Below are positions 1 through 12,772 of a stretch of 12,772 nucleotides of DNA, one piece after another; within the stretch, counting starts at the first letter, position 1, and each line of letters begins with the position of its first letter. Source of the DNA: a virus (Duplodnaviria > Heunggongvirae > Uroviricota > Caudoviricetes); the IMG/VR virus record IMGVR_UViG_2531839178_000014, one strand, 5' to 3'. The notes under the pieces are model-generated. The model was given only the letters and a program-made list of their open reading frames with translations. It had not been told where the DNA came from and did not search any database. Position numbers and translations under genes: made by a program.

Positions 1-155
1 AGCAGAGCGTTCTGGCAACGTCGCTGACACGGTCGCCCCCGGTGCAGCATCAGCATGGCAGTCAGTCTGCGGGCATAATTTTTATCGTGTGTTTTATGGA
101 TGGCTTTCTGCATCAGGCGTCGTTCGTCACGGGAAATTGGTGCTATGATCGGCAT
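1..155 (-). CDS. IS630-family-like transposase, N-terminal part (MPIIAPISRDERRLMQKAIHKTHDKNYARRLTAMLMLHRG...); ORF runs off the window start
   Basis: Minus-strand ATG at 155-153 with an open frame to position 1. The N-terminus resembles Tc1/IS630-type transposases as I recall them. The element end abuts a CTAG site inside IS2 at 256/257. Confidence 0.5.
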   Translation of the reverse strand, partial: MPIIAPISRDERRLMQKAIHKTHDKNYARRLTAMLMLHRGRPCQRRCQNAL

Positions 156-256
156 TGCTCAGTCCGGTTGGTGATTTGTTTTGATTTGGCGATTGTTCAG
201 ATCGCACAATCCGGGCTAAGTTCCCTCAAAGTGATCTACTATTCCGCGCAGCTATT

Positions 257-332
257 TAGTCTAAAAACTAGTATTAAGACTATCACTTATTTAAGTGATA
301 CTGGTTGTCTGGAGATTCAGGGGGCCAGTCTA
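257..332 (-). mobile_element. IS2 left-end fragment (IRL plus about 76 bp), internally truncated by the IS630-like insertion
   Basis: Reverse complement is identical to the first 76 bp of the IS2 copy starting at 12339 (TAGACTGGCCCCCTGAATCTCCAGACAACCAG...TTTTTAGACTA). Identity is lost exactly after GACTA. Confidence 0.8.
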
Positions 333-349
333 GGGGATAAATTAGCCAT
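333..349 (-). pseudogene. 5' stub of a gene (SD GGAGGAA, ATG at 349, codons M-A-N-L-S-P) severed by the IS2 end
   Basis: Minus strand reads ...cagcGGAGGAAttaacTGATGgctaatttatcccc, then the IS2 IRL begins. The start overlaps the native stop of the upstream 113-aa ORF (TGATG). Confidence 0.4.
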
Positions 350-415
350 CAGTTAATTCCTCCGCTGATATATGAGGTGTACTGGCAATAGCGGACACTA
401 CCATTTGTTCTTTTT

Positions 416-1234
416 TTAAGCAGCCATCTGATGATATTTTTCCCTGAAGGCTGCCGGGGAGATATTCCCCAGACGAGAGTGACGACGCTGACGATTGTAG
501 AAAATCTCAATGTATTCCCGTATTACTGAGATGGCTTCATCCCGGTTATTAAAACGATAGTGGCTCAGGCTCTCATTTTTCAGCGTTCCCCAGAAGCTTT
601 CCATCGGAGCGTTGTCGTAACTGTTACCTTTACGCGACATTGATGTTTTCAGACCAAACTGCTCCTGTATGACCCGGTAATCGTATGCGCAGTACTGTGA
701 ACCTCGATCAGAGTGGTGGATTAGCCCGGCAGGTGGGCGCTGGCTCCTGAGCGCCATAAACAGGGCTTTACCTGTCAGCTCTTTTGTCATGCGCTCTCCC
801 ATGGCGTAGCCGACAATTTCGCACGTATAAACATCTTTGATGCCAGCGAGGTACAACCATCCCTCCTGTGTGGCAACATACGTCAGGTCCGCCACCCAGA
901 CCTGATTTGGTGCTGTAGGAGCGAACGTCTGGTTCAGCAGATTTGGCGCAACTGGCAGATTGTGGTTCGGGTTCGTAGTCGCTCTGAACTTGCGTTTCTG
1001 CTTACAGCGTAGCCTTAGCTCCTTACGAAGACGTGCCAGTCGGTCACGACCAACGATGATGCCATTCTCTGCCAGCTCCGTCTGGAGCCGCCGGGTTCCA
1101 TATGTTTCGCGAGTGCGGATATGTGCCACCTTAATCTCCAGTTTTAGCCGCTCATCACTTTGTTTTCTGTCTGAGGGTTCATGCTGTACCCAGTTGTAAT
1201 AACCGCTCCTGGATACACCAAATACCTGACACAT
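416..1234 (-). CDS. IS3-family transposase OrfB segment (DDE integrase-like catalytic region), IS911-like
   Basis: 272-aa ORF with typical IS3-family OrfB features (ADLTYV..., HSDRGSQY..., YDNAPMESFWGTLK...). The orfB frame upstream of the Met is closed by a TGA at 1283-1285. Confidence 0.85.
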   Translation of the reverse strand: MCQVFGVSRSGYYNWVQHEPSDRKQSDERLKLEIKVAHIRTRETYGTRRLQTELAENGIIVGRDRLARLRKELRLRCKQKRKFRATTNPNHNLPVAPNLLNQTFAPTAPNQVWVADLTYVATQEGWLYLAGIKDVYTCEIVGYAMGERMTKELTGKALFMALRSQRPPAGLIHHSDRGSQYCAYDYRVIQEQFGLKTSMSRKGNSYDNAPMESFWGTLKNESLSHYRFNNRDEAISVIREYIEIFYNRQRRHSRLGNISPAAFREKYHQMAA

Positions 1235-1310
1235 CGCTTCAATGGGAAATTGTTGTCGCCATTGTTCGATTAACGCGTATTTTCAGCGACTCCTGTGCAA
1301 AATACGCTGT

Positions 1311-2531
1311 TGTAGATTCAATCTGTCAATGCAACACCCCTTTCAATTATCTCTTTCGGTGTTTTGAACTTCAGTGTCTTTCTCGGTCTGTTGTTTAGCT
1401 GAGCAGCAACCAGATCTAGTTCATGTTGAGTATATTGGGCAAGACATGTCTTTTTAGGAAAGTACTGCCGAATTAGCCCATTTGTGTTCTCATTTGTTCC
1501 CCGCTGCCAAGGACTCTGAGGATCGCAGAAGTAAACTTTAACGCCGGTGCTGACAGTAAATTCTAGATGTCTGGCCAGTTCCATTCCTCTGTCCCATGTC
1601 AGTGATTTTCTGAGTTCTGACGGTAAACTCAGGAATTTGTCGGTAAGAGCCTGATTTACTGAGACAGAATCTTTGCCCCTGAGTCTAAGGATGATCGTAT
1701 AACGTGATTTTCGGTCTACAAGTGTGGCTATATGAGAGTTTTTTGTACCTGAGACTAAATCGCCCTCCCAATGCCCCAGAGAGCGTCTGTTATCGATATT
1801 TCGGGAACGTTCGTGAATTGGTGTTCCGTTCACTATGTTAATCGTACCTCTTTCGCCTTTGCGGGTATGACGCCTGCCATGGCGAAGGCTATGCGACCGT
1901 CGCAGATGCTGTATATTCAGGTGGTGTAGCGCTTCACGGCTACGAAAGTACAGCGTTTTATAAATTGTCTCAGGTGATATTCGCAGCGTTTTTTGACGTG
2001 GTTTTGTTCGCCTTAACCATCCTGATATTTGCTCTGGAGACCATTTCATCTCCAGCTTTTCCAGAACAAGCTTTCGCAATGGTAAATTTTGATCCAGTAA
2101 GCACGGTTTTGGCCTTTTCGCCATTCTGTTGGCTCGGTTATTAGCATCAACAGCTTTGTAATAGCGTCTGCCCCGATTACGCTGAACTTCACGTGAGATC
2201 GTCGAAGGACTGCGATTCAGCGCAGTAGCTATCGCACGAATGCTCATTTTGGCTGACAAACCAGCTCGTATCTCCTCGCGCTCAGACAGTGTCAGGTGAG
2301 CTACAGCCCGCTTACGCTCATGGGGTTTTATGCCGCCAGTATCCCTTAACATAGTGAAGATCGTTCCGGGTTTTGAACCCAGGATATTCGCTATTTCACT
2401 GAAGCCTGTTCCGTTCTTCCATAGTTCAAAAACAGAGGCTTTTTCCTCTGCTGTAAATGTTCGTCTCATTCAAAAAACCTCCGCGACCCCATGTTTTCAC
2501 ATAACTGTTGCGTTGACCAATTGAATCTACA
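1311..2531 (-). mobile_element. IS30, copy 1 (1221 bp), inserted in the IS911-like element; 2-bp direct repeat GT
   Basis: Terminal inverted repeats TGTAGATTCAAT... at both ends. GT at 1309-1310 and 2532-2533. Encodes a 383-aa transposase. Confidence 0.9.
1318..2469 (-). CDS. insI: IS30 transposase
   Basis: 383-aa ORF, identical to the second copy at 10006-11157. Sequence and length match the IS30 transposase as I recall it; N-terminal HTH and C-terminal DDE region. Confidence 0.9.
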   Translation of the reverse strand: MRRTFTAEEKASVFELWKNGTGFSEIANILGSKPGTIFTMLRDTGGIKPHERKRAVAHLTLSEREEIRAGLSAKMSIRAIATALNRSPSTISREVQRNRGRRYYKAVDANNRANRMAKRPKPCLLDQNLPLRKLVLEKLEMKWSPEQISGWLRRTKPRQKTLRISPETIYKTLYFRSREALHHLNIQHLRRSHSLRHGRRHTRKGERGTINIVNGTPIHERSRNIDNRRSLGHWEGDLVSGTKNSHIATLVDRKSRYTIILRLRGKDSVSVNQALTDKFLSLPSELRKSLTWDRGMELARHLEFTVSTGVKVYFCDPQSPWQRGTNENTNGLIRQYFPKKTCLAQYTQHELDLVAAQLNNRPRKTLKFKTPKEIIERGVALTD

Positions 2532-2794
2532 GTTGCTTTTTTTAATATATCTCGCTCAAGGCGAGCTTCATTTAACGCCTTACGCAGTTGCAGAATTTCA
2601 GATTCCAGTTCAGCCACCGTGCGGGAGCCAGGAGTACCGAGCCCTTTTCTGGCGGCGGTAACCCATTGTCCTAAAGTGCCTTCAGGAAGGGATAATCGGG
2701 AAGCGCCTTCACTGATCGAAAGTTGATTTTCAAGAACCGTTCTGACAGCTTCGGCTTTGAACTCTTTAGAGTAACGTTGGGTTTTTCTGCTCAT
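2532..2794 (-). pseudogene. IS911-like OrfA (MSRKTQRYSKEFKAEAV...DILKKAT), interrupted by IS30 just after the A-run; ORF reads on into the IS30 end (to 2426)
   Basis: ATG at 2794 lies 64 bp inside the IS end. HTH and leucine-zipper-like OrfA. The same segment is present in three copies in the window. Confidence 0.8.
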
Positions 2795-2855
2795 TATTAG
2801 CTCCTTCTGATGCCATTCTATTTCAGGAAGGAGTGTCCGTTAAACTCAGGCTACC

Positions 2856-3197
2856 TCAATATTTTTCTTTCGCGTAATCAATAACCTCTTGTAAAAGGTT
2901 GTCTATAATTAACTTTCCGGTTTCAGCCTGGTATTCAGTATGTTGATTAATCCCGATAGCATTCTGGTATGCAGTGCGGATTTCGGTTTCACCCTCCACT
3001 CGGCCCAATTCACCACGGGTAATACCTTCAAAGCGTAACAGCAACTGGTTTATAAACTGTTCTGTTATTTCTATGGTCGTAATGTTCCCATCCAGAAGGT
3101 CAACAATAAGCAGATCACCACCTGTTTTACGTTTTATTCGATGGAGTGCCGCAACAGCTATACGGCGACGATATGTATTAATGGGTTCATGTGTCAT
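2856..3197 (-). CDS. hypothetical protein, 113 aa as found; last about 6 native codons removed by the IS insertion
   Basis: ORF whose stop codon TGA is supplied by the IS terminus. Rejoining the flanks at the ATA duplication restores ...YAKEKYISGGIN*. In frame with the 37-aa ORF upstream. Confidence 0.6.
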   Translation of the reverse strand: MTHEPINTYRRRIAVAALHRIKRKTGGDLLIVDLLDGNITTIEITEQFINQLLLRFEGITRGELGRVEGETEIRTAYQNAIGINQHTEYQAETGKLIIDNLLQEVIDYAKEKY

Positions 3198-3200
3198 TTG

Positions 3201-3314
3201 TTATTTCCCGTATGCTTTACGCAGAAATAAGCAGGCAATATGCATGTAATTTTCACCGTATTGTGCAATAAGGCTGGCGGTCTTGTGTGATGCCATATTC
3301 TTTATAAAAGTCAT
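3201..3314 (-). CDS. small ORF, 37 aa (MTFIKNMASHKTASLIAQYGENYMHIACLFLRKAYGK), strong SD; in frame with the downstream 113-aa ORF across a single TAA
   Basis: AGGAGG sits 7 nt upstream of ATG 3314. Not in the supplied track (below the length cut-off). Checked codon by codon. Confidence 0.4.
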   Translation of the reverse strand: MTFIKNMASHKTASLIAQYGENYMHIACLFLRKAYGK

Positions 3315-3392
3315 AATAAAGCCTCCTGTGGATTAAGGTTGTAACAATCCCCAGCGATAAAACCGCAATAAACGTTCAGGGCATATTTGTTG

Positions 3393-3758
3393 TTATTGCG
3401 CTAATTCTTTTTCAACAGCGGCTTTTGCATATTCACATGCAAAATTCAGAATTTCACTGCCAAGTGTTTTTGTTTCGTTATTACTGGACGTATGTAACAC
3501 CTGTGTTGCATGCAATAAATGATAAACATTTACCGCAAATGAATCAGGCTCCAGACAAATGCCTTCGTAATTATCTTGCTGTGAGGTTGTTTCTGTCATT
3601 GCTCCTGAAGTGCATGCGAGCCTGTTTTTGACAATTCTCTTTCCTCTAATCACTATATCGGCAACATCTATTGCCTTTACAACCTCCGGGAGAAGTTCCT
3701 GGTTTGTATAATCAAAGTTATCAACATGGAGAACAGTTATGTTTTCGAACTTTTTCAT
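3393..3758 (-). CDS. hypothetical protein, 121 aa, no recognisable domain
   Basis: ORF with SD GAGGAA upstream of ATG 3758. Same strand and operon position as the repressor genes. Confidence 0.6.
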   Translation of the reverse strand: MKKFENITVLHVDNFDYTNQELLPEVVKAIDVADIVIRGKRIVKNRLACTSGAMTETTSQQDNYEGICLEPDSFAVNVYHLLHATQVLHTSSNNETKTLGSEILNFACEYAKAAVEKELAQ

Positions 3759-3796
3759 GGCTTCCTCAGCTGACTTATATGTTCTGCTATATAGCG

Positions 3797-3825
3797 AGTC
3801 TCAGAAGTGTTTTCATATTGAGACT
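3797..3825. promoter_or_regulatory. inverted repeat AGTCTCA-N15-TGAGACT between the HTH gene and the 121-aa ORF
   Basis: 7-bp perfect arms seen directly. No T-tract follows, so more likely an operator or RNA structure than a terminator. Confidence 0.3.
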
Positions 3826-3886
3826 GTTTCCGCAATGATTGATAAAAATGTTCGCATGTACCTTGAGGGGCGAAGCGGCGATTATG

Positions 3887-4390
3887 TCACCATTGGTATT
3901 GGTTCTTCCGTAGAAGAGCTTCGCGAGATAAGGAGCAAACTTGTTGAGATGCGTTATGGTGTTGCTGCTCCTCACTTTTTGGTTGCACCGGAGGAGTAAC
4001 CGCGCCAGTTAACAGCCACATCGGATCGCAGCCAAGAATATTTGCCAGTGGGATAAGCATACTGATAGTTGGTTCATACTCTCCGCTCTCCCACTGGATG
4101 ATGACTTCTTCATCGAGATCGAGCAGCCTGGCGAGTTCGGCGGTTGTTAAGCCGCAGGCTTCGCGTTGGGTGCGAAGACGGTTGTTGATTGCAGAATTTT
4201 TGTTCTGTAAAAGCATTGCTGACGATAGCTTTCTGGATATGCTATTTGTCATATCCCATGCCAGTCCTGCGCATGACTCTATATCGCTAGAGAGCGTAGC
4301 ATCTGGTGTTGCTTTTGCTATTAGTGTAATGAGGCTGCCGAGGTTTTTCAGTTCTTCGAGACAGTCAAGAGTTGTAGCTTTATTGATCAT
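3887..4390 (-). CDS. XRE-family helix-turn-helix DNA-binding protein (167 aa) with an extra N-terminal segment
   Basis: Central HTH_XRE-like segment INNRLRTQREACGLTTAELARLLDLDEEVIIQWESGEYEPTISMLIPLANILG. The 5' end is uncertain (internal Met codons at 4252 and 4216 lack an SD). Confidence 0.65.
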   Translation of the reverse strand: MINKATTLDCLEELKNLGSLITLIAKATPDATLSSDIESCAGLAWDMTNSISRKLSSAMLLQNKNSAINNRLRTQREACGLTTAELARLLDLDEEVIIQWESGEYEPTISMLIPLANILGCDPMWLLTGAVTPPVQPKSEEQQHHNASQQVCSLSREALLRKNQYQW

Positions 4391-4421
4391 GAGATGATAC
4401 CCCAGTTACGAACTTTGTTTC

Positions 4422-4450
4422 ATGGTAACTAAGGCATCAAAGCATGGCAA
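4422..4450 (-). promoter_or_regulatory. candidate sigma70 promoter for the HTH gene (-35 TTGCCA, 17-bp spacer, -10 TACCAT on minus strand)
   Basis: Hexamers read directly from the sequence; a TTGATACTTTGG motif copy lies just upstream at 4458-4469. Confidence 0.3.
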
Positions 4451-4486
4451 GTAGTTTTTGATACTTTGGTTTCTTTTTGTATCTGG

Positions 4487-5143
4487 TCAGAAAATATCCC
4501 ACCTGGCATCAACCACAACACCTACTATTTCGCAATCATTGTCCATTTCTATGATGGGATATTGTGGATTAAGGGGCTTTAGAAACGCCTTCCCCATTTC
4601 AGAAATATATTTTTTGAATGTTGCTTCATTGGTGGATTTTTTTCTGGCGATGACGTAACACCCTGAAAAAACTTCTTTATCTGGATTGACAAGGATCGAC
4701 ATTCCTTCAGGAAATGTTATTCCTATAGGCGAAGTCATTGAGTCTCCGTGTACTTCCAGCCAGAAGCCCCTCTCACCAGCGTATTTTACAGAATGCCTCC
4801 AATTATCCTGATCATACATGTTGTAGTCATCACCTGCAGTTGCGAATAATCCTGCCTGAACCCAGTTAATTACAGGGTAAGAGTGTGCTGTGTCTCTCTG
4901 GGGACAGCTCTTAACATTATTTTCCCAATACTTACCTTTTTCATCTCCGTTCTGAAGCCACTGCGGTGAACACTGCAGTGCCGCTGCGACTTTAAAAAGC
5001 GTGTCACCGTTGAAACTTTTTGTAAGACCTTGCTCGGCTTTACTGATTGCAACTCTGGTGACCCCAGCTTTTTTAGCCAACGCATCTTGCGTTAACCCAG
5101 CTTTTTGTCGTGCGTTGATGAGGCGTTCACCTAAAGATTTCAT
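4487..5143 (-). CDS. CI-like phage repressor: N-terminal XRE HTH plus C-terminal LexA/S24 peptidase domain (218 aa)
   Basis: HTH LGERLINARQKAGLTQDALAKKAGVTRVAISKAEQG; Ala-Gly site (VQAGLFATAG); GDSM serine motif and a downstream Lys (ARKK). SD AAGGAG precedes ATG 5143. Confidence 0.85.
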   Translation of the reverse strand: MKSLGERLINARQKAGLTQDALAKKAGVTRVAISKAEQGLTKSFNGDTLFKVAAALQCSPQWLQNGDEKGKYWENNVKSCPQRDTAHSYPVINWVQAGLFATAGDDYNMYDQDNWRHSVKYAGERGFWLEVHGDSMTSPIGITFPEGMSILVNPDKEVFSGCYVIARKKSTNEATFKKYISEMGKAFLKPLNPQYPIIEMDNDCEIVGVVVDARWDIF

Positions 5144-5189
5144 TTTTCTTCTCCTTTCATGGCTGCTGATACTAAAGTAACAGAATGTC

Positions 5190-5218
5190 TTGATACTTTG
5201 GATTCTCATGTTTAACAT
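5190..5218 (+). promoter_or_regulatory. candidate rightward promoter (-35 TTGATA, 17 bp, -10 TAACAT) in the repressor/Cro-like intergenic region
   Basis: Hexamers read from sequence; overlaps the second TTGATACTTTGG motif copy. Confidence 0.3.
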
Positions 5219-5254
5219 TCTTGGATAACAGAGTATCCGGTGTGAGGCTAAAGA

Positions 5255-5464
5255 ATGACCCTTTATGAAATATTAAAAACTCAATTTAAAACCAATGCCG
5301 CTATTGGCCGCAGGTTCCCAAAGAAAGGAAAGCCTCGTGGTAGTCAGGGAGTTGGAAAGTGGAAAACGCGGGGCGTTCCGGAGGATGTTGCCATTCTCTG
5401 CCATCTGGATCCGAACATTCCATATACACATCCAAGCTTAGCGCACACAGAGGATGAGAAGTGA
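5255..5464 (+). CDS. small basic protein (69 aa) divergent from the repressor; positional Cro analogue
   Basis: ORF with SD GTGAGG 7 nt upstream. Assigned by position only; no clear HTH recognised. Confidence 0.45.
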   Translation: MTLYEILKTQFKTNAAIGRRFPKKGKPRGSQGVGKWKTRGVPEDVAILCHLDPNIPYTHPSLAHTEDEK

Positions 5465-5504
5465 TGGTGGTGATATGAGCGAAAAAATAACTATTAAATA
5501 CGAT

Positions 5505-5527
5505 GGGGCAACAATTTCGATTGCCCC
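5505..5527. terminator. GC-rich hairpin (GGGGCAA-N9-TTGCCCC) between convergent genes, followed on the minus strand by a T-rich stretch
   Basis: 7-bp perfect stem seen directly. It lies 8 nt beyond the native stop of the 97-aa minus-strand gene once the IS is removed in silico. Confidence 0.35.
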
Positions 5528-5597
5528 AATCACATTAGGCTGTGTCCCTTAATCATCTGAGCTATAGTAACTGTCTGTTTACACAACATATTGAACT

Positions 5598-6047
5598 ATG
5601 GCTCGCTACGACCTTCCCGATGAGGCATGGACCATCATCAAGCCCCTGTTACCTCCTGAACCCGCCACACCACGGGCCGGACGCCCATGGGCTGAGCACC
5701 GTAAAATCATCAATGGCATGTTCTGGGTGTTATGTTCCGGTGCACCATGGCGCGATTTACCCGAACGATATGGGTCATGGAAAACTGTTTATAACCGCTT
5801 TAACCGATGGTCAAAGTCAGGCGTGATTAATATTATTTTCAACAGGTTGCTTTCGCTACTTGATGCAAACGGCTTTATTGACTGGTCTGCCACCGCGCTG
5901 GATGGCAGTAATATCCGGGCGCTGAAATGTGCCGCCGGTGCTCAAAAAAACATCCCGATATCGACGGAGATAATGGGCTGGGTCGCTCTCGCGGCGGTTT
6001 TGGCACCAAAATCCATCTGGCAACAGACGGAAGTGGCCTCCCGTTAA
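5598..6047 (+). CDS. IS5-family transposase ORF1 (N-terminal DNA-binding part)
   Basis: 149-aa ORF MARYDLPDEAWTIIKPLLP...WRDLPERYGSWKTVYNRFNRW. Confidence 0.8.
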   Translation: MARYDLPDEAWTIIKPLLPPEPATPRAGRPWAEHRKIINGMFWVLCSGAPWRDLPERYGSWKTVYNRFNRWSKSGVINIIFNRLLSLLDANGFIDWSATALDGSNIRALKCAAGAQKNIPISTEIMGWVALAAVLAPKSIWQQTEVASR

Positions 6048-6442
6048 ATATCGTGCTAAGCCCCGGACAAGCTCATGAAAGCCAGTTCGCGCAACGACTT
6101 CTGGACGGGATTGGCGTTCAGCGTCAGAACGGCAGCATGAAACGCCGTGGACATGCGGTACTGGCTGATAAAGCGTATTCAGGGCGCGCATTGCGCAACG
6201 AGCTGAAAAATAACGGTATAAAGGCAGTAATCCCCCGAAAGTCAAATGAGAAAATGGCATCGGATGGACGTGCACAGCTTGATCGTGATGCGTACTGCAA
6301 TCGTAATGTCGTTGAACGGTGCTTTGGGCGGCTGAAAGAATATCGCCGCATCGCCACGCGTTACGACAAAACGGCGAGAAATTACCTGGCGATGGTGAAA
6401 CTGGGCTGCATCCGACTCTTTTATCAACGCTTACGTAATTAA
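5927..6442 (+). CDS. IS5-family transposase ORF2 (DDE catalytic part), -1 frame relative to ORF1
   Basis: 171-aa ORF ...GGFGTKIHLATDGSGLPLNIVLSPGQAHESQ...; overlaps ORF1 by about 120 nt. Confidence 0.8.
   Translation: MCRRCSKKHPDIDGDNGLGRSRGGFGTKIHLATDGSGLPLNIVLSPGQAHESQFAQRLLDGIGVQRQNGSMKRRGHAVLADKAYSGRALRNELKNNGIKAVIPRKSNEKMASDGRAQLDRDAYCNRNVVERCFGRLKEYRRIATRYDKTARNYLAMVKLGCIRLFYQRLRN
5944..5950 (+). promoter_or_regulatory. A7 slippery run (A AAA AAC in the ORF1 frame), candidate programmed -1 frameshift site fusing ORF1 and ORF2
   Basis: The frames were checked: ORF1 reads GAQKNIP and ORF2 reads CSKKHPDID over the same A-run. Confidence 0.5.
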
Positions 6443-6452
6443 GGGACACAGC

Positions 6453-6746
6453 CTAGCGTTCGCTGAGAAGTTGTTGGTAAGCCTTAAAGGATGCGAACTG
6501 CATTCTACCTTCGGCATTGATTCCAATGCCTTCGCTTGTGCACCAGGCGATGAACTCGGCTGTATCCGCTTCAGCTTTAATAACTCGTTGCCCGCTTCTT
6601 TCGACACGCTTAATCAATTTTTCAGCGTCGTGTTTCCACTCGGTGTAACTGTCGGAGAGCACATCAGCATCAGTAAAAATATTTTTGAGCTCATGATACT
6701 GAATCGCATCGCGAAACCAGAATAAACCAACGGCCTGAACTTTCAT
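6453..6746 (-). CDS. hypothetical protein, 97 aa, strong SD; native TAA stop overlaps the IS5-family insertion point
   Basis: AAGGAGG sits 6 nt upstream of ATG 6746. Protein-like composition. The plus-strand ORF 6471-6725 is the antisense reading. Confidence 0.65.
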   Translation of the reverse strand: MKVQAVGLFWFRDAIQYHELKNIFTDADVLSDSYTEWKHDAEKLIKRVERSGQRVIKAEADTAEFIAWCTSEGIGINAEGRMQFASFKAYQQLLSER

Positions 6747-6865
6747 GTCGAACCTCCTTTGGTTCTTTTGTTTATAGGGATCAAAAGGATAACTGAAGGA
6801 TGGTTCGGCACCAACAAGTACGAATGTGCGGAATCTTAAAAGAATTTATCCGTAAGGAGATGGCA

Positions 6866-7573
6866 GTGAACACCGCAATTTTTAACGACAAAGTATCCAT
6901 GACCAGCGTTGAAATCGCAGAGCTGGTTGGAAGTCAACACGGCAATGTCAGAATATCAATAGAGCGTCTGGCAAAACGCGGGGTGATTCAACTTCCTGCA
7001 ATGCAAAAAGTTGAGAACGAACAATCATTTAGCCAAAACAAATTCACAAACGCATATATTTTCGAAGGCGAACAAGGCAAACGCGACAGCATCATTGTCG
7101 TCGCACAACTTTGCCCGGAATTCACTGCCCGCCTGGTAGATCGTTGGCGCGAACTGGAAGAGCAGGTGCGCAAACCAATGAGCGAAATCGAAATGGTTGC
7201 CGCGATGGCTCTTGAAGCCGTTCGCCAGCAGAAACGGATCACTCAGGTGGAAGAAAAAGTCAGCCATGTTGCCGAAACAGTTGAGCAAATCAAAAAGGGT
7301 ACCATTCGTGAGGGCTATGCCGGATATCGCCAGCTGAAAGCAAAAACCGGTATGTCAGATGCGAAATGTCGCACGCTTGTAAATGCATACAACATCCCGA
7401 CAGACACTCATGAATTTTTGACGCCAGATGGATTACTGGCACGTCGTGAAATTGTTGCTGTGGAACCGTTTCTGAAGGCGTTTCATCACATGATGTGTGG
7501 TGCCGTTCAGCGTGGTACCCGCTGGTATCACCCGAGAATGGGCCTGTTTCAGGCTACTGGCTGGCAGGTGTGA
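6866..7573 (+). CDS. Rha-like phage regulatory protein (putative antirepressor family)
   Basis: N-terminal ...SMTSVEIAELVGSQHGNVRISIERL... resembles the Rha N-terminus of the second copy. Start chosen at GTG 6866 (AAGGAG 6 nt upstream); the longer track ORF from 6800 has no SD. Confidence 0.65.
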   Translation: MNTAIFNDKVSMTSVEIAELVGSQHGNVRISIERLAKRGVIQLPAMQKVENEQSFSQNKFTNAYIFEGEQGKRDSIIVVAQLCPEFTARLVDRWRELEEQVRKPMSEIEMVAAMALEAVRQQKRITQVEEKVSHVAETVEQIKKGTIREGYAGYRQLKAKTGMSDAKCRTLVNAYNIPTDTHEFLTPDGLLARREIVAVEPFLKAFHHMMCGAVQRGTRWYHPRMGLFQATGWQV

Positions 7574-7592
7574 CGATGTTTACGGGTAATTT

Positions 7593-7769
7593 ATGCAAGT
7601 CCTCAATCGCTGGTTCCGTGATGGCAGAGGGCGCCGCGTCCACGTTATACGCTGGGAGCCTGAAACACAGCGGGTTATTTATCTGCGTGATGGTTATCCA
7701 TATGAATGTTTCAGCCCGTTGTGGTTGTTCAGGCGTGATTTTGTGGAGTGTGAAGCGCCGCCGGAATGA
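7593..7769 (+). CDS. small ORF, 58 aa (MQVLNRWFRDGRGRRVHVIRWEPETQRVIYLRDGYPYECFSPLWLFRRDFVECEAPPE)
   Basis: ATG to TGA open frame in the gap between the Rha gene and the two-gene module; no good SD. Confidence 0.25.
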   Translation: MQVLNRWFRDGRGRRVHVIRWEPETQRVIYLRDGYPYECFSPLWLFRRDFVECEAPPE

Positions 7770-7790
7770 CGGCACGGTATATACGAAAAA

Positions 7791-8150
7791 TTACGCCGCC
7801 TTGCCCAGCGTAAAATCAAAGTGGATGTCGTCATACGGGAATGACGTTCCGCGCTCGCTTTTTTCCAGTAAACCGTTGCTGATGAGTGCGGTCACGTCAG
7901 TATGCACGCTTTTTACATCACGTCCAACCAGGGCTGCAATTTTTCGGATGGGCATTTCTCCGGCACCAGTCATTGCCATCAGAATGTCCATGCGTTTTGG
8001 TGTCAGTACCTTATGCATCATTTGCCAGTCAGGAAATGAAATAACGTTTTCTCTGGTTGCTTTTGCTCCGGTAGCTGCTTCCTGGAACGCAGACAGCACA
8101 TCAGCCGTGAAATTATCCATTGACTCGATTCGGATTGTTACGGTTCTCAT
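7791..8150 (-). CDS. HTH DNA-binding protein (119 aa), antitoxin-like second gene of a coupled pair
   Basis: ATG 8150 lies 1 nt after the upstream gene's stop (TGAcATG). C-terminal HTH-like segment MPIRKIAALVGRDVKSVHTDVTALISNGLLEK. Confidence 0.6.
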   Translation of the reverse strand: MRTVTIRIESMDNFTADVLSAFQEAATGAKATRENVISFPDWQMMHKVLTPKRMDILMAMTGAGEMPIRKIAALVGRDVKSVHTDVTALISNGLLEKSERGTSFPYDDIHFDFTLGKAA

Positions 8151-8151
8151 G

Positions 8152-8439
8152 TCAGATACCTCTGCGGATGGATTCAACGTCAGCCAGAAAATCAGCGAGC
8201 AGTTGTTCAATGGTGACAAAGCTGGTGCTGACTTCCTGACTACCAATGTGTTTGTGATCGCCTTTACCCCGTTCGTTGTCGTAACGCATCACACACATGC
8301 CATCAACGACATAAGCCATGCTGTATTTGTAGTTGTGCTGGCTACCCAATACAGCAGGCTCCACTTCCCATATGCGGATTCGTATGTATTCAGATTCACC
8401 GAGATGACGGATGAACTGTTTATACAGTCTGGATGGCAT
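8152..8439 (-). CDS. small protein (95 aa), toxin-like first gene of a coupled pair; family not recognised
   Basis: SD GAGGAAG sits 6 nt upstream of ATG 8439. Stop is translationally coupled to the next gene. Confidence 0.55.
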   Translation of the reverse strand: MPSRLYKQFIRHLGESEYIRIRIWEVEPAVLGSQHNYKYSMAYVVDGMCVMRYDNERGKGDHKHIGSQEVSTSFVTIEQLLADFLADVESIRRGI

Positions 8440-8457
8440 TTAAAGCTTCCTCTGGTT

Positions 8458-8481
8458 CTTGTTGTAAACAATAACAACAAG
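8458..8481. promoter_or_regulatory. inverted repeat CTTGTTGT-N8-ACAACAAG in the promoter region of the two-gene module (candidate operator)
   Basis: 8-bp perfect arms seen directly, about 20 bp upstream of the start codon at 8439. Confidence 0.4.
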
Positions 8482-8793
8482 GCTTCGCGTTGTCCACAGC
8501 TACAACATTTTGATATTGATTCTGCAAGTCCGGGACGTTACACTGTCTCTGCACCTTATAAAGCGGGTGCCGGGATTGGCGTCCTGAAATTCAATATAGA
8601 GCATAACCGCGCTCATGCGGTTTTTTCGTGTCATGAGCATTGCTACGCCCAAATTATGGTGGGGCGTGCAGGGGCATCGCAAGATGCGCCGGGTTCTATG
8701 TTGACCGGTTACGCCAACCCTGTACGTCTCACCACCTCTGTGATTGGCGTCCCATGTGGTGAGTTCTTTGAATTCAACATAGGGGCTGTCACC

Positions 8794-9357
8794 ATGACTA
8801 CACTCCCAACCCTCTCTCAACCTGAAATTGCCATCGTTGATGGTCAGGCTGTTACTTCATCTCTGGCTGTTGCTGACTTCTTCTCTAAACGTCATGACGA
8901 TGTTCTGAAAAAGATCCGCATTTTGGATTGTTCTCCAGAGTTTTGTGCCCGCAATTTTGCGGAGACATCAATTTTGGTACACCAGCCCAACGGCGGTACT
9001 CGCAAACTTCCTTGCTACCACATCACCCGCGACGGCTTCGCATTCCTGGCAATGGGCTTCACTGGCAAACGTGCTGCCCGCTTCAAAGAGGCATACATCA
9101 ACGCCTTTAACCTGATGGAGAAGAGTTTATCAGGTGCCGATGCGTCTGATATGTCAGCTGTCGCACGAAACGCCAGAGGCGTATACCTGCATTTGCGTGA
9201 AATCCATCAAATCTGGATAAGCCAGCTTTATCCAATGCTTAAGGCCGTTGAGTCTCCGCTGGCTGGCAAACTGTACGACCGTGTAGGTGATGCTGTTTTT
9301 GGTGCTGCACTTGTTGATTCCAGACTGAATGGTTCTGACAAGGAGGGGCGCCCATGA
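8794..9357 (+). CDS. Rha-family phage regulatory protein (187 aa)
   Basis: MTTLPTLSQPEIAIVDGQAVTSSLAVADFFSKRHDDVLKKIR...FKEAYINAFNLMEK matches the Rha family pattern. It is only the 3' part of the 620-aa track ORF. Confidence 0.8.
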   Translation: MTTLPTLSQPEIAIVDGQAVTSSLAVADFFSKRHDDVLKKIRILDCSPEFCARNFAETSILVHQPNGGTRKLPCYHITRDGFAFLAMGFTGKRAARFKEAYINAFNLMEKSLSGADASDMSAVARNARGVYLHLREIHQIWISQLYPMLKAVESPLAGKLYDRVGDAVFGAALVDSRLNGSDKEGRP

Positions 9358-9587
9358 TCCGCCACATCGTTAATTCCCTGTATCACCGATACAACCGTTG
9401 CCCCCGAGTGGGGCAGTGGTTCACCACCAGCAACGGCCACGTTCTGCGGGTTTGCCTGGTCAATACAGAAAGCCAGAAGGTTGTCTGCCAGGTTCAGGGA
9501 CGTACTCATACCCTGAGTTATCCGCTGGTGGCGTTTCAGTCCGGAAAAATGTTTAAACGCCTGGGAGGTGGCTATGCGTCCGTCTGA
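9354..9587 (+). CDS. hypothetical small protein, 77 aa, start overlaps the Rha stop (ATGA)
   Basis: Strong SD AAGGAGGGG upstream of ATG 9354. Confidence 0.5.
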   Translation: MIRHIVNSLYHRYNRCPRVGQWFTTSNGHVLRVCLVNTESQKVVCQVQGRTHTLSYPLVAFQSGKMFKRLGGGYASV

Positions 9588-9617
9588 TCTTCTGCTCGAT
9601 TTTGGACATCCGGTTGC
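9574..9617 (+). pseudogene. 5' stub of a gene (MRPSDLLLDFGHPVA...) cut by the IS911-like left end
   Basis: SD GGGAGG plus ATG 9574; the open frame runs into the IS terminus at 9618. Confidence 0.4.
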
Positions 9618-9943
9618 TGAGGTAGCCTGAGTTTAACGGACACTCCTTCCTGAAATAGAATGGCATCAGAAGGAGCTAATAATGAGCAGAAAAACCCAAC
9701 GTTACTCTAAAGAGTTCAAAGCCGAAGCTGTCAGAACGGTTCTTGAAAATCAACTTTCGATCAGTGAAGGCGCTTCCCGATTATCCCTTCCTGAAGGCAC
9801 TTTAGGACAATGGGTTACCGCCGCCAGAAAAGGGCTCGGTACTCCTGGCTCCCGCACGGTGGCTGAACTGGAATCTGAAATTCTGCAACTGCGTAAGGCG
9901 TTAAATGAAGCTCGCCTTGAGCGAGATATATTAAAAAAGCAAC
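9618..9943 (+). mobile_element. IS911-like 5' segment (IRL plus OrfA up to the A-run), 326 bp, abutting the IS30 IRL
   Basis: Near-identical to the reverse complement of 2532-2858 except that the A-run is A6 rather than A7. OrfA (9682-9948) therefore reads ...DILKKQL* into IS30. Confidence 0.85.
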
Positions 9944-11164
9944 TGTAGATTCAATTGGTCAACGCAACAGTTATGTGAAAACATGGGGTCGCGGAGGTTT
10001 TTTGAATGAGACGAACATTTACAGCAGAGGAAAAAGCCTCTGTTTTTGAACTATGGAAGAACGGAACAGGCTTCAGTGAAATAGCGAATATCCTGGGTTC
10101 AAAACCCGGAACGATCTTCACTATGTTAAGGGATACTGGCGGCATAAAACCCCATGAGCGTAAGCGGGCTGTAGCTCACCTGACACTGTCTGAGCGCGAG
10201 GAGATACGAGCTGGTTTGTCAGCCAAAATGAGCATTCGTGCGATAGCTACTGCGCTGAATCGCAGTCCTTCGACGATCTCACGTGAAGTTCAGCGTAATC
10301 GGGGCAGACGCTATTACAAAGCTGTTGATGCTAATAACCGAGCCAACAGAATGGCGAAAAGGCCAAAACCGTGCTTACTGGATCAAAATTTACCATTGCG
10401 AAAGCTTGTTCTGGAAAAGCTGGAGATGAAATGGTCTCCAGAGCAAATATCAGGATGGTTAAGGCGAACAAAACCACGTCAAAAAACGCTGCGAATATCA
10501 CCTGAGACAATTTATAAAACGCTGTACTTTCGTAGCCGTGAAGCGCTACACCACCTGAATATACAGCATCTGCGACGGTCGCATAGCCTTCGCCATGGCA
10601 GGCGTCATACCCGCAAAGGCGAAAGAGGTACGATTAACATAGTGAACGGAACACCAATTCACGAACGTTCCCGAAATATCGATAACAGACGCTCTCTGGG
10701 GCATTGGGAGGGCGATTTAGTCTCAGGTACAAAAAACTCTCATATAGCCACACTTGTAGACCGAAAATCACGTTATACGATCATCCTTAGACTCAGGGGC
10801 AAAGATTCTGTCTCAGTAAATCAGGCTCTTACCGACAAATTCCTGAGTTTACCGTCAGAACTCAGAAAATCACTGACATGGGACAGAGGAATGGAACTGG
10901 CCAGACATCTAGAATTTACTGTCAGCACCGGCGTTAAAGTTTACTTCTGCGATCCTCAGAGTCCTTGGCAGCGGGGAACAAATGAGAACACAAATGGGCT
11001 AATTCGGCAGTACTTTCCTAAAAAGACATGTCTTGCCCAATATACTCAACATGAACTAGATCTGGTTGCTGCTCAGCTAAACAACAGACCGAGAAAGACA
11101 CTGAAGTTCAAAACACCGAAAGAGATAATTGAAAGGGGTGTTGCATTGACAGATTGAATCTACA
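9944..11164 (+). mobile_element. IS30, copy 2 (1221 bp)
   Basis: Same terminal repeats as copy 1. Flanked by AC on the left and GT on the right, which are reverse complements rather than a direct repeat. Confidence 0.9.
10006..11157 (+). CDS. insI: IS30 transposase
   Basis: 383-aa ORF identical in protein sequence to 1318-2469. Confidence 0.9.
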   Translation: MRRTFTAEEKASVFELWKNGTGFSEIANILGSKPGTIFTMLRDTGGIKPHERKRAVAHLTLSEREEIRAGLSAKMSIRAIATALNRSPSTISREVQRNRGRRYYKAVDANNRANRMAKRPKPCLLDQNLPLRKLVLEKLEMKWSPEQISGWLRRTKPRQKTLRISPETIYKTLYFRSREALHHLNIQHLRRSHSLRHGRRHTRKGERGTINIVNGTPIHERSRNIDNRRSLGHWEGDLVSGTKNSHIATLVDRKSRYTIILRLRGKDSVSVNQALTDKFLSLPSELRKSLTWDRGMELARHLEFTVSTGVKVYFCDPQSPWQRGTNENTNGLIRQYFPKKTCLAQYTQHELDLVAAQLNNRPRKTLKFKTPKEIIERGVALTD

Positions 11165-11491
11165 GTTGCTTTTTTTAATATATCTCGCTCAAGGCGAGCT
11201 TCATTTAACGCCTTACGCAGTTGCAGAATTTCAGATTCCAGTTCAGCCACCGTGCGGGAACCAGGAGTACCGAGCCCTTTTCTGGCGGCGGTAACCCATT
11301 GTCCTAAAGTGCCTTCAGGAAGGGATAATCGGGAAGCGCCTTCACTGATCGAAAGTTGATTTTCAAGAACCGTTCTGACAGCTTCGGCTTTGAACTCTTT
11401 AGAGTAACGTTGGGTTTTTCTGCTCATTATTAGCTCCTTCTGATGCCATTCTATTTCAGGAAGGAGTGTCCGTTAAACTCAGGCTACCTCA
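11165..11491 (-). mobile_element. IS911-like 5' segment (IRL plus OrfA up to the A-run), 327 bp, inverted, abutting the IS30 IRR
   Basis: Matches 2532-2858 (A7) with one substitution (A at 11260 versus G at 2627). OrfA from ATG 11427 reads into the IS30 end (track ORF 11077-11427). Confidence 0.85.
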
Positions 11492-11627
11492 AAGGACCGA
11501 ACAAACGAAACAGCAATGAGACCGTTGCGAAAAGCGACAATAGACAAATTCCCTGAATATATCGACCCGCGCCTGCGTAATTACCGCTCACGCTATGGCG
11601 CTATCAGTAATGACTGAGGAATTTACC

Positions 11628-11795
11628 ATGAGAGGACTTGCATACAATCCCGGCATTCTTCCGGCAGAAATGATTATTCGCCAACGCGTAAAGCCAATGC
11701 CATCGAGAGAGGAATTGCTTAAGAGAAATTCTTTTCCGTCAGTGAATCAAAACAAATATCTGAATGCTATGTGGCGCAAAGGAGGCAAACAGTGA
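11628..11795 (+). CDS. hypothetical small protein (about 55 aa from ATG 11628; longer track ORF from 11595)
   Basis: GAGGA sits 7 nt upstream of ATG 11628; in frame with upstream ATGs at 11595 and 11610. Confidence 0.4.
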
Positions 11796-12338
11796 GCGAA
11801 ATTGACTATCAGGCACTGCGTGAAAAGGCAGAGAAAGCAACGTGGGGTGTGTGGTCGCTCGAATATGGAGAGGAGAAACTTGATGCTGATGATGCGCTAA
11901 TTCACCGTGAAGTTGTTGGATATCTTCCTATTTGCAGAATTGAAGGAGCGCATCCTGAAAGCGGTTTCGATGAAGATTTCCAAATGGAACAGCAGGCCAA
12001 TGCTGAATTCATCGCCGCAGCCAATCCGGCTACTGTGCTGACACTGCTGAGCGAGCTGGAAACAGCAAAAAAGCGCATAGCAGAACTGGAAGCCAAACCT
12101 GTAAGCCAGACTTACAAGTTGAATGAGATGTCGGGCAACTCTCCGGTAATTCCGGATGGTTGGATAAGCTGTAGTGATCGAATGCCTGAAAAGGGCCAGA
12201 ACGTACTTATTTCGGTGAATTTCGATAGCTCTCTGGTTGAACCGCTAATATGCTCCGCACGCTATACCGGAGGTACATTCCGGCGTGGAGATGTAACGGT
12301 TAAGCCAGGTAATGGTATTGAACAGGCAACCCACTGGA
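11792..12338 (+). pseudogene. Ea22-like prophage protein, C-terminus cut by IS2 (frame continues into the IS2 IRL to 12388)
   Basis: SD AAGGAGG sits 6 nt upstream of GTG 11792. N-terminal [20 protein letters not shown] resembles Ead/Ea22-like prophage proteins as I recall them. The IS2 IRL starts at 12339. Confidence 0.55.
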
Positions 12339-12529
12339 TAGACTGGCCCCCTGAATCTCCAGACAACCAGTATCACTTAAATAAGTGATAGTCTTAATAC
12401 TAGTTTTTAGACTAGTCATTGGAGTACAGATGATTGATGTCTTAGGGCCGGAGAAACGCAGACGGCGTACCACACAGGAAAAGATCGCAATTGTTCAGCA
12501 GAGCTTTGAACCGGGGATGACGGTCTCCC
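12339..12529 (+). mobile_element. insC: IS2 left end with the first 33 codons of InsC ([33 protein letters not shown]), interrupted by another IS
   Basis: IRL TAGACTGGCCCCCTGAATCTCC at 12339; InsC ATG at 12430. Identity to IS2 is lost at about 12530. Confidence 0.85.
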
Positions 12530-12772
12530 TGAACCGCCCCGGGTTTCCTGGAGAGTGTTTTATCTGTGAACTCAGGCTGCCAGATCATCGTTTCCGATGG
12601 AAGCATAATAAGCTTTTTCTGCTTCTGCCGGAGGAGTATGGCCCAGCCTTTCCAGCAATCGTCGATTGTTATACCAGTCCACCCACGTGAGTGTGGCCAG
12701 TTCCACTTCTGCACGGTTTTTCCAGCTCTTACGGTGTATTACCTCCGCTTTGTAAAGACCATTGATGCTCTC
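12530..12772 (-). mobile_element. IS3-family element (IS629/IS1203-like) right end with the OrfB C-terminus; continues beyond the window
   Basis: Terminus TGAACCGCCCCGGG. Minus-strand frame 12572-12772 encodes ...[66 protein letters not shown]. Confidence 0.7.

Follow-up and report, generated by a model that had tools for sequence, protein, structure and literature searches.

The arrangement of an IS30 element between two inverted copies of the 5' part of IS600 (IS600 5' part, IS30, inverted IS600 5' part) is probably an artefact of a draft assembly, in which a repeat was traversed along a chimeric route, and would not exist in the cell. The window, meaning the whole stretch of 12,772 bp that was analysed, corresponded to the entire contig AKNA01000035.1 of the Shigella boydii draft assembly GCA_000268145.1, a short-read-era assembly, and IS elements were present at both ends of this contig. 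The parts of the arrangement are ordinary: an IS30, an IS600, and the widespread nested IS600::IS30 composite, which occurs in both orientations.

The comparison was centred on PSSP01000001.1, the genome of a near-identical strain assembled in one 5.1-Mb contig. Only 2 SNPs distinguished it from the draft across 6.7 kb of unique DNA, which makes it a close relative, although identity of the two strains is not proven. Two loci of this genome, locus 1 (L030) and locus 2 (L024), were compared with the window, as were the contig AKNA01000038.1 (L026) of the same draft and an uninterrupted relative (L003).

Structure of the IS30 element and its two arms

The left arm (9618-9943, plus strand, 326 bp) was an IS600 5' part with a run of six A (A6), derived from an insertion that interrupts a replication gene. 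The right arm (11165-11491, minus strand, 327 bp) was the same part of IS600 with a run of seven A (A7) and an A at 11260, and came from a composite in an anti-RecBCD gene. The IS30 between them (9944-11164, plus strand, 1221 bp) is the repeat that joins the two loci. Each arm consisted of the IS600 terminal repeat (TGAGGTAGCC...) and orfA, and ended 5 nt beyond the A-run, which serves in programmed frameshifting. The arms differed only at 11260 (G in the left arm, A in the right one) and in the length of the run, and at 326/327 nt the inverted repeat is much too long to have arisen by chance. This bracketing of an IS30 by two inverted copies of one 5' segment had been reported in the first-pass annotation of the sequence, and it was recovered at the same coordinates. 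The segment had been called IS911-like, a name that was right only at the family level (IS3), since the element itself is IS600: full-length copies with 99-100% identity to it carry the RefSeq label 'IS3-like element IS600 family'.

The two ends of the IS30 were joined to the same IS600 nucleotide (...GCAAC/IS30/GTTGC...), with AC and GT as the 2-bp flanks, as had been claimed. The left junction, in which ...AAAAAGCAAC is followed by TGTAGATTCAATTGG, was the same in a second composite of the window (copy A, 373-2858) and in locus 1. The right junction, GAATCTACA followed by GTTGCTTTTTTT, was the same in composites of the opposite orientation (L001, L024 and L036-L044). No 2-bp direct target duplication was present at the IS30 of 9944-11164, with its AC and GT flanks, whereas the copy at 1311-2531 has GT on both sides; hence, in the form that the contig gives it, this copy did not result from a simple insertion. 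In addition, orfB, the IRR and the 3-bp duplication were all absent from the IS600 arms, and the outer flanks were TGC and AAG, in agreement with the earlier description.

The IS30 itself appeared complete. Its length of 1221 bp fits an IS30 with imperfect 26-bp terminal inverted repeats (TGTAGATTCAAT...), its ends being TGTAGATTCAATTGGTCAACGCAACA and the reverse complement of TGTAGATTCAATCTGTCAATGCAACA, and it carried an intact single transposase ORF (10006-11157) of 383 aa with the domains PF13936 (HTH_38) and PF00665 (rve). Identical copies are labelled 'IS30-like element IS30 family transposase' in RefSeq, and the identity with the inverted IS30 at 1311-2531 was 100%.

This other IS30 (1311-2531, minus strand), also encoding a 383-aa HTH_38 and rve transposase and flanked by the GT/GT duplication, was located inside copy A. 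The IS600 3' part of this copy, with orfB and the IRR (373-1310, minus strand), matched the IS600 copies annotated in L003 at 99.6-99.8% identity, and its 5' part (2532-2858, minus strand) comprised the IRL and orfA to 5 nt beyond the A7 slippery run. The full IS600 (373-2858) therefore had both IRL and IRR, orfA and orfB, the A7 run and an ATA duplication. In L003, positions 333-372 were contiguous with 2859 onwards and a single ATA was present, which is the empty site and identifies copy A as a plain nested insertion. The first-pass annotation, which had used the copy at 1311-2531 as its example of a simple insertion, was thus borne out.

The rest of the window was formed by prophage DNA and by fragments of other IS elements. 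The contig began inside an IS630-family fragment (1-256, minus strand), colinear with L030 1598-1853 in a 343-aa DDE_3 transposase gene. It was followed by a 76-nt inverted copy of 12339-12414 (257-332, minus strand), which we take to be an IS2 left-end fragment; in L030 this IS2 extends past the IS630-family insertion. Positions 2859-9617 belonged to a lambdoid prophage and covered its immunity and early-right region, according to PHROG matches, colinearity with L003 and L030, and gene calls. This region encoded a LexA-like repressor (4487-5143, minus strand), Rha regulators and a TumE toxin-antitoxin pair, contained a 915-bp IS5-family insertion (5539-6453), and ended in the replication gene, which was cut by the left arm 44 nt past its start. 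To the right of the right arm, an early-left operon fragment (11492-12338, plus strand) contained the 3' end of the anti-RecBCD gene, a DUF2737 gene and an Ea22-like gene, in an order that was inverted relative to 2859-9617 when compared with the normal lambdoid order. The Ea22-like gene was interrupted by an IS2 left end (12339-12530, plus strand), and the resulting 198-aa Ea22::IS2 fusion protein is common to S. boydii assemblies. Inside this IS2 lay the 3' end of another IS3-family element (12531-12772, minus strand), with a 66-aa rve_2/rve_3 gene call, and the contig ended within it.

Colinearity with two loci of a close relative

The two sides of the IS30 corresponded to two separate places in PSSP01000001.1. 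Positions 1-11164 of the window aligned colinearly to approximately 647-658 kb (locus 1) at 99.92%, and positions 9944-12772 to approximately 1,657-1,660 kb (locus 2) at 99.86%. The overlap between the two alignments was exactly the 1221-bp IS30, and the right arm (11165-11491) was colinear with L024 9374-9700. At locus 1, the IS30 was followed by ACAGCG... (ACAGCGTATTTTGC..., the IS600 3' part), the IRR, the duplicated TGC and what remains of the replication gene (TGCTTATTACCCTGG...); the empty site of this gene in L003 had one TGC only. The first-pass annotation had named such a normal order (5' part, IS30, 3' part) as the sign of misassembled repeats and had proposed a search for the missing target duplication. 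Both were found at locus 1, the order itself and the TGC past the IRR. At locus 2, the order was recT, the IS600 3' part (inverted), IS30, the IS600 5' part (inverted) and the 3' end of the anti-RecBCD gene. The truncated product of the replication gene, of 299 aa, is on record solely for this 5.1-Mb relative.

These features are those of a chimeric contig: its two parts meet within a repeat, the two sides are colinear with separate loci, and the same unique DNA is placed conflictingly in the draft (see the following section). If the strain of the draft is arranged like its close relative, as seems probable, its genome would hold a composite 1 with the order U-(IS600 5' part, IS30, IS600 3' part)-replication gene. 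A composite 2 would lie about 1 Mb away, with the order recT-(IS600 3' part inverted, IS30, IS600 5' part inverted)-anti-RecBCD gene 3' end, and its IS30, turned the other way relative to IS600, would interrupt it at the same dinucleotide. The assembler would have entered the near-identical 1221-bp IS30 from locus 1 and left it into locus 2, and the join would presumably be its product; all of the local junctions are real, and only the long-range connection would be false. The same IS600 nucleotide would be found at both ends of the IS30 because the element occupies the same site in both orientations, and the outer flanks TGC and AAG would not match because they come from two different IS600 insertions. 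A join of two loci would also account for the reverse-complementary AC and GT flanks and for the SNPs that differ between the arms. Furthermore, the connection through the IS30 cannot be established by reads shorter than this 1.2-kb element.

The alleles within the repeats were examined in the same comparison. At positions 795 and 797 of the IS30, TT was present both in the window and in the copy at 1311-2531, versus CC in both parental-type copies of the relative. At position 11275, the right arm had a C and both L024 and the sister contig AKNA01000038.1 had a T. Homopolymer undercalls with respect to PSSP01000001.1 were observed in the draft at positions 36, 1280 and 9933, the last of them being the A6 run. 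The TT alleles, the C at 11275 and the A6 undercall point to a collapsed repeat consensus and not to a locus-specific sequence. The arm differences noted in the first-pass annotation were therefore present, both the G/A at 11260 and A6 versus A7, but the second one looks like a homopolymer undercall.

That annotation had preferred a rearrangement between two differently oriented composites. Its central part stood, since the arms came from two IS600::IS30 composites with opposite IS30 orientation, but the assembly artefact, which it had offered as the alternative, is the explanation favoured here: the limits of the IS30 are precisely those of the join, and a second contig of the draft also contains the right flank.

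The right flank in a second contig and the possibility of a real recombinant

Positions 11492-12772 were found again in AKNA01000038.1, where gamL, recT and an IS600::IS30 composite lie upstream of them. The right flank represents 847 bp of unique DNA, which was present in two contigs of the draft and in single copy in PSSP01000001.1, so that at least one of the draft contigs must be wrong. AKNA01000038.1 is not a clean witness, being itself anomalous: its IS30 was flipped with respect to that of the relative, and 53 bp of IS600 were missing between two CAGTTGC repeats.

The two draft copies of the right flank differed at 11275 and in a homopolymer at 11749, which shows that a single consensus was not the source of both. 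These differences could be read as a sign that both contigs are correct, either because the prophage segment of the right flank is duplicated or because the culture was a mixture of rearranged subpopulations. We consider this highly improbable. In the relative this segment occurs once. Of the two differences, one concerns the length of a homopolymer, and the other, at position 11275, falls within IS600, a multicopy element whose other copies can contribute reads that alter the consensus. As for the mixed culture, a subpopulation with the deletion-type junction would be without 1 Mb of DNA.

A second possibility is that the junction is real, and that two composites with oppositely oriented IS30 recombined within this element and their halves were fused. 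Such an event could proceed by RecA-dependent exchange, by the IS30 transposase through site-specific dimerisation of distant copies followed by dissolution of the dimer, or by intramolecular transposition into the IS600 hot spot. Its outcome would depend on how the copies are arranged in this strain, with a deletion from direct copies and an inversion from inverted ones, and an exchange between inverted IS30 copies would yield precisely the contig observed. Both parental types exist: the standard one was found in 373-2858 and in L030, and the opposite one in seven loci including L024. Differing SNPs are what would be expected of arms derived from two parental copies, Shigella chromosomes often rearrange at IS copies, and deletions and inversions mediated by IS30 via IR-IR junctions are documented even between distant copies (PMC9333248). 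An analogous hybrid is also fixed beside cobU in numerous complete E. coli genomes.

Nevertheless, an origin by recombination is unlikely in view of three observations. In PSSP01000001.1, the IS30 copies of locus 1 and locus 2 had the same orientation and were 999.8 kb apart, so that the junction of the window would be a deletion-type product, with the loss of 1 Mb. Moreover, the right flank was also present in AKNA01000038.1 in its parental context. Finally, the TT in the IS30 versus CC in both parental-type copies, and the C versus T at 11275, do not fit a simple crossover between the parental loci.

The contig taken as correct, that is, as an IS30-mediated recombinant in Shigella boydii with a functional IS30 between two inverted IS600 left ends, is quite doubtful. 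If it were real, it would be the mark of a large chromosomal inversion driven by IS30, or of a duplication, that connected the replication module with a prophage early-left operon, and the two IRL termini might be mobilised in trans by the IS600 transposase. It would add another IS30-driven rearrangement in an IS-rich Shigella genome, a modest gain given that the mechanism is well described.

Three other origins were considered and rejected. A simple inversion between two IS600 copies would leave normal 5'...3' IS600 elements and not two 5' parts. A palindrome formed by fold-back or hairpin at the broken end of an IS30 does not agree with a right arm that ends exactly at the IS600 terminus and is followed by unrelated prophage DNA instead of an inverted copy of the left flank. 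Insertion of the structure as a composite transposon was discarded in the absence of a flanking duplication, and because the flanks were never contiguous in 5,426 E. coli genomes.

Occurrence in other genomes and comparison with known systems

The structure was searched for in 5,426 complete E. coli genomes and 72,556 plasmids, and no single aligned piece covered it in full. The best single piece in either collection reached 83-84% of the structure and consisted of the IS30 with one arm. The two outer flanks were never adjacent in the 5,426 complete E. coli genomes, where they mapped to different prophage modules, and each of the flank alignments ended exactly at the IS600 terminus. These results indicated that the arms come from two different IS600 insertions, an origin that accounts both for the SNP by which they differ and for the missing 3-bp duplication. 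The left outer junction gave no exact match in the species-representative genome collection. The 88-aa product of the A6 orfA and a 77-aa phage protein matched only in unrelated or uninterrupted contexts, and the 88-aa product also occurred in many fragmented, error-rich assemblies.

Insertion of IS30 in IS600 with the opposite relative orientation was common (L001, L024, L036, L038, L040, L042 and L044). As a separate observation, IS30 recurred just downstream of the frameshift run in IS3-family elements, in both orientations. This recurrence of the site, together with the genuine composite hybrids of many E. coli genomes, is of small value for IS biology.

The closest known structure is the nested IS600::IS30 composite, widespread in E. 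coli and Shigella, with which the window shares the same IS30, the same IS600 dinucleotide (AC) and the same junctions. It differs in that the nested composite has one 5' and one 3' part of IS600 and the 2-bp duplication, whereas the window has two 5' parts and no duplication. In E. coli K-12, an IS3-family element ('IS911') interrupted by IS30A has been described (PMC9333248).

The ability of IS30 to promote deletions and inversions by IR-IR junctions and (IS30)2 dimers has been studied by the Olasz/Kiss laboratory (PMC9333248). This mechanism would give, as in the window, a single IS30 with flanks from two parental copies; unlike in that mechanism, no IR-IR junction, dimer or reciprocal product was seen for the window.

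In the hybrid next to cobU, an IS30 is bracketed by a 5' end from another IS3-family element on the left and by an inverted IS600 5' end on the right, each of the two cut just after its A7 run. This hybrid is certainly real, as it is found in dozens of independently finished genomes. It resembles the window in the lack of a 2-bp duplication (GC/GT), in the identical right junction and in the same 'A' SNP, but its left arm belongs to a different element and no palindrome is formed. By analogy with it, IS30-bearing junctions like that of the window can arise biologically.

The repeat-induced chimeric contig is the system to which the preferred reading assigns the window. If the arrangement is indeed an artefact, it illustrates clearly that nested IS elements, when they occupy a single hot spot in either orientation, can mimic palindromic rearrangements convincingly in draft genomes, and contigs of this sort are to be left out of counts of IS-mediated inversions. 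The window resembles contigs of this kind in its breakpoint within a 1221-bp repeat that is the same at both loci, its colinearity with two loci of a finished-quality relative, the duplication of its unique flank in the draft and the alleles of its repeat consensus, which fit neither locus.

Position of IS30 in IS3-family elements

IS30 was found in one and the same dinucleotide of IS600, located 5 nt 3' of the A7 slippery run; either orientation of IS30 occurs there, and several loci of the chromosome show it. In the window, the IS30/IS600 target dinucleotide was located at 1309-1310, 2532-2533, 9942-9943 and 11165-11166. In another IS3-family element, IS30 likewise sits at the corresponding position. 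Beyond the window, these observations cover L001, L036-L044, L024 (locus 2 of the 5.1-Mb relative) and L045 2564-2995. In K-12 DH10B, the 5' end of this second IS3-family element adjoins a truncated IS30. A hot spot for IS30 seems to lie in the conserved frameshift window of the IS3-family elements.

Homopolymer differences and related IS600::IS30 structures

Homopolymer lengths at window positions 36, 1280, 9933 and 11749 were one base off those of the 5.1-Mb relative or the sister contig, and such differences are typical of pyrosequencing-type undercalls. The first-pass annotation had taken A6 versus A7 as a difference between the two IS600 arms. The A6 of the left arm results from the single-base homopolymer difference at 9933.

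In the sister contig AKNA01000038.1 of the same draft (L026 9420-9440), the orientation of IS30 was opposite to that in the 5.1-Mb relative, and the adjacent IS600 5' part lacked its first 53 bp, with the gap lying between two 7-bp repeats, CAGTTGC. The 53-bp loss reflects either another assembly error or a genuine deletion at a microhomology.

At L024, an IS600::IS30 composite was located between recT and the anti-RecBCD gene (boundaries 7214 and 9700), with unlike flanks (ATT versus AAG). It takes the place of the 3' end of recT, the exonuclease gene and the 5' end of the anti-RecBCD gene; therefore, the composite itself is associated with a deletion.

Other insertion elements and prophage genes

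A perfect 76-nt inverted repeat (257-332 and 12339-12414) corresponded to two outward-facing IS2 left ends. The left IS2 is interrupted by an IS630-family element (1-256), and the right one, which starts at 12339 and interrupts an Ea22-like gene, is itself interrupted from 12531 by another IS3-family element.

A 915-bp IS5-family element (5539-6453; DDE_Tnp_1, two overlapping ORFs) is inserted directly beside the repressor and cro-like genes, on their right-hand side, and was absent from the relative L003. The alignments on its two sides overlap by 3 bp, which suggests a duplication of that length.

The 620-aa ORF at 7495-9357, taken from a mechanical ORF list, was rejected as a gene. Only its last 317 codons (8404-9357) match the Rha-family regulator. 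A TumE/HVO_A0114 toxin-antitoxin-like pair (7791-8439) overlaps its upstream part on the opposite strand.

The hybrid unit adjoining cobU

In E. coli EJN001 (L002 4776-6574), a unit adjoining cobU consisted of an IS3-family 5' end, IS30 and an inverted IS600 5' end. The left arm belongs to an IS3-family element other than IS600, its 5' end stopping at ...ATATTAAAAAAAGCCGC, and the inverted right arm starts with GTTGCTTTTTTT... The IS30 is flanked by GC/GT, with no 2-bp duplication. The same type of hybrid was found in L039, L041, L043 and dozens of further matches among complete E. coli genomes. It is a genuine structure, present in many of these genomes, and looks like a fixed recombination product of two IS3-family elements, each carrying IS30.
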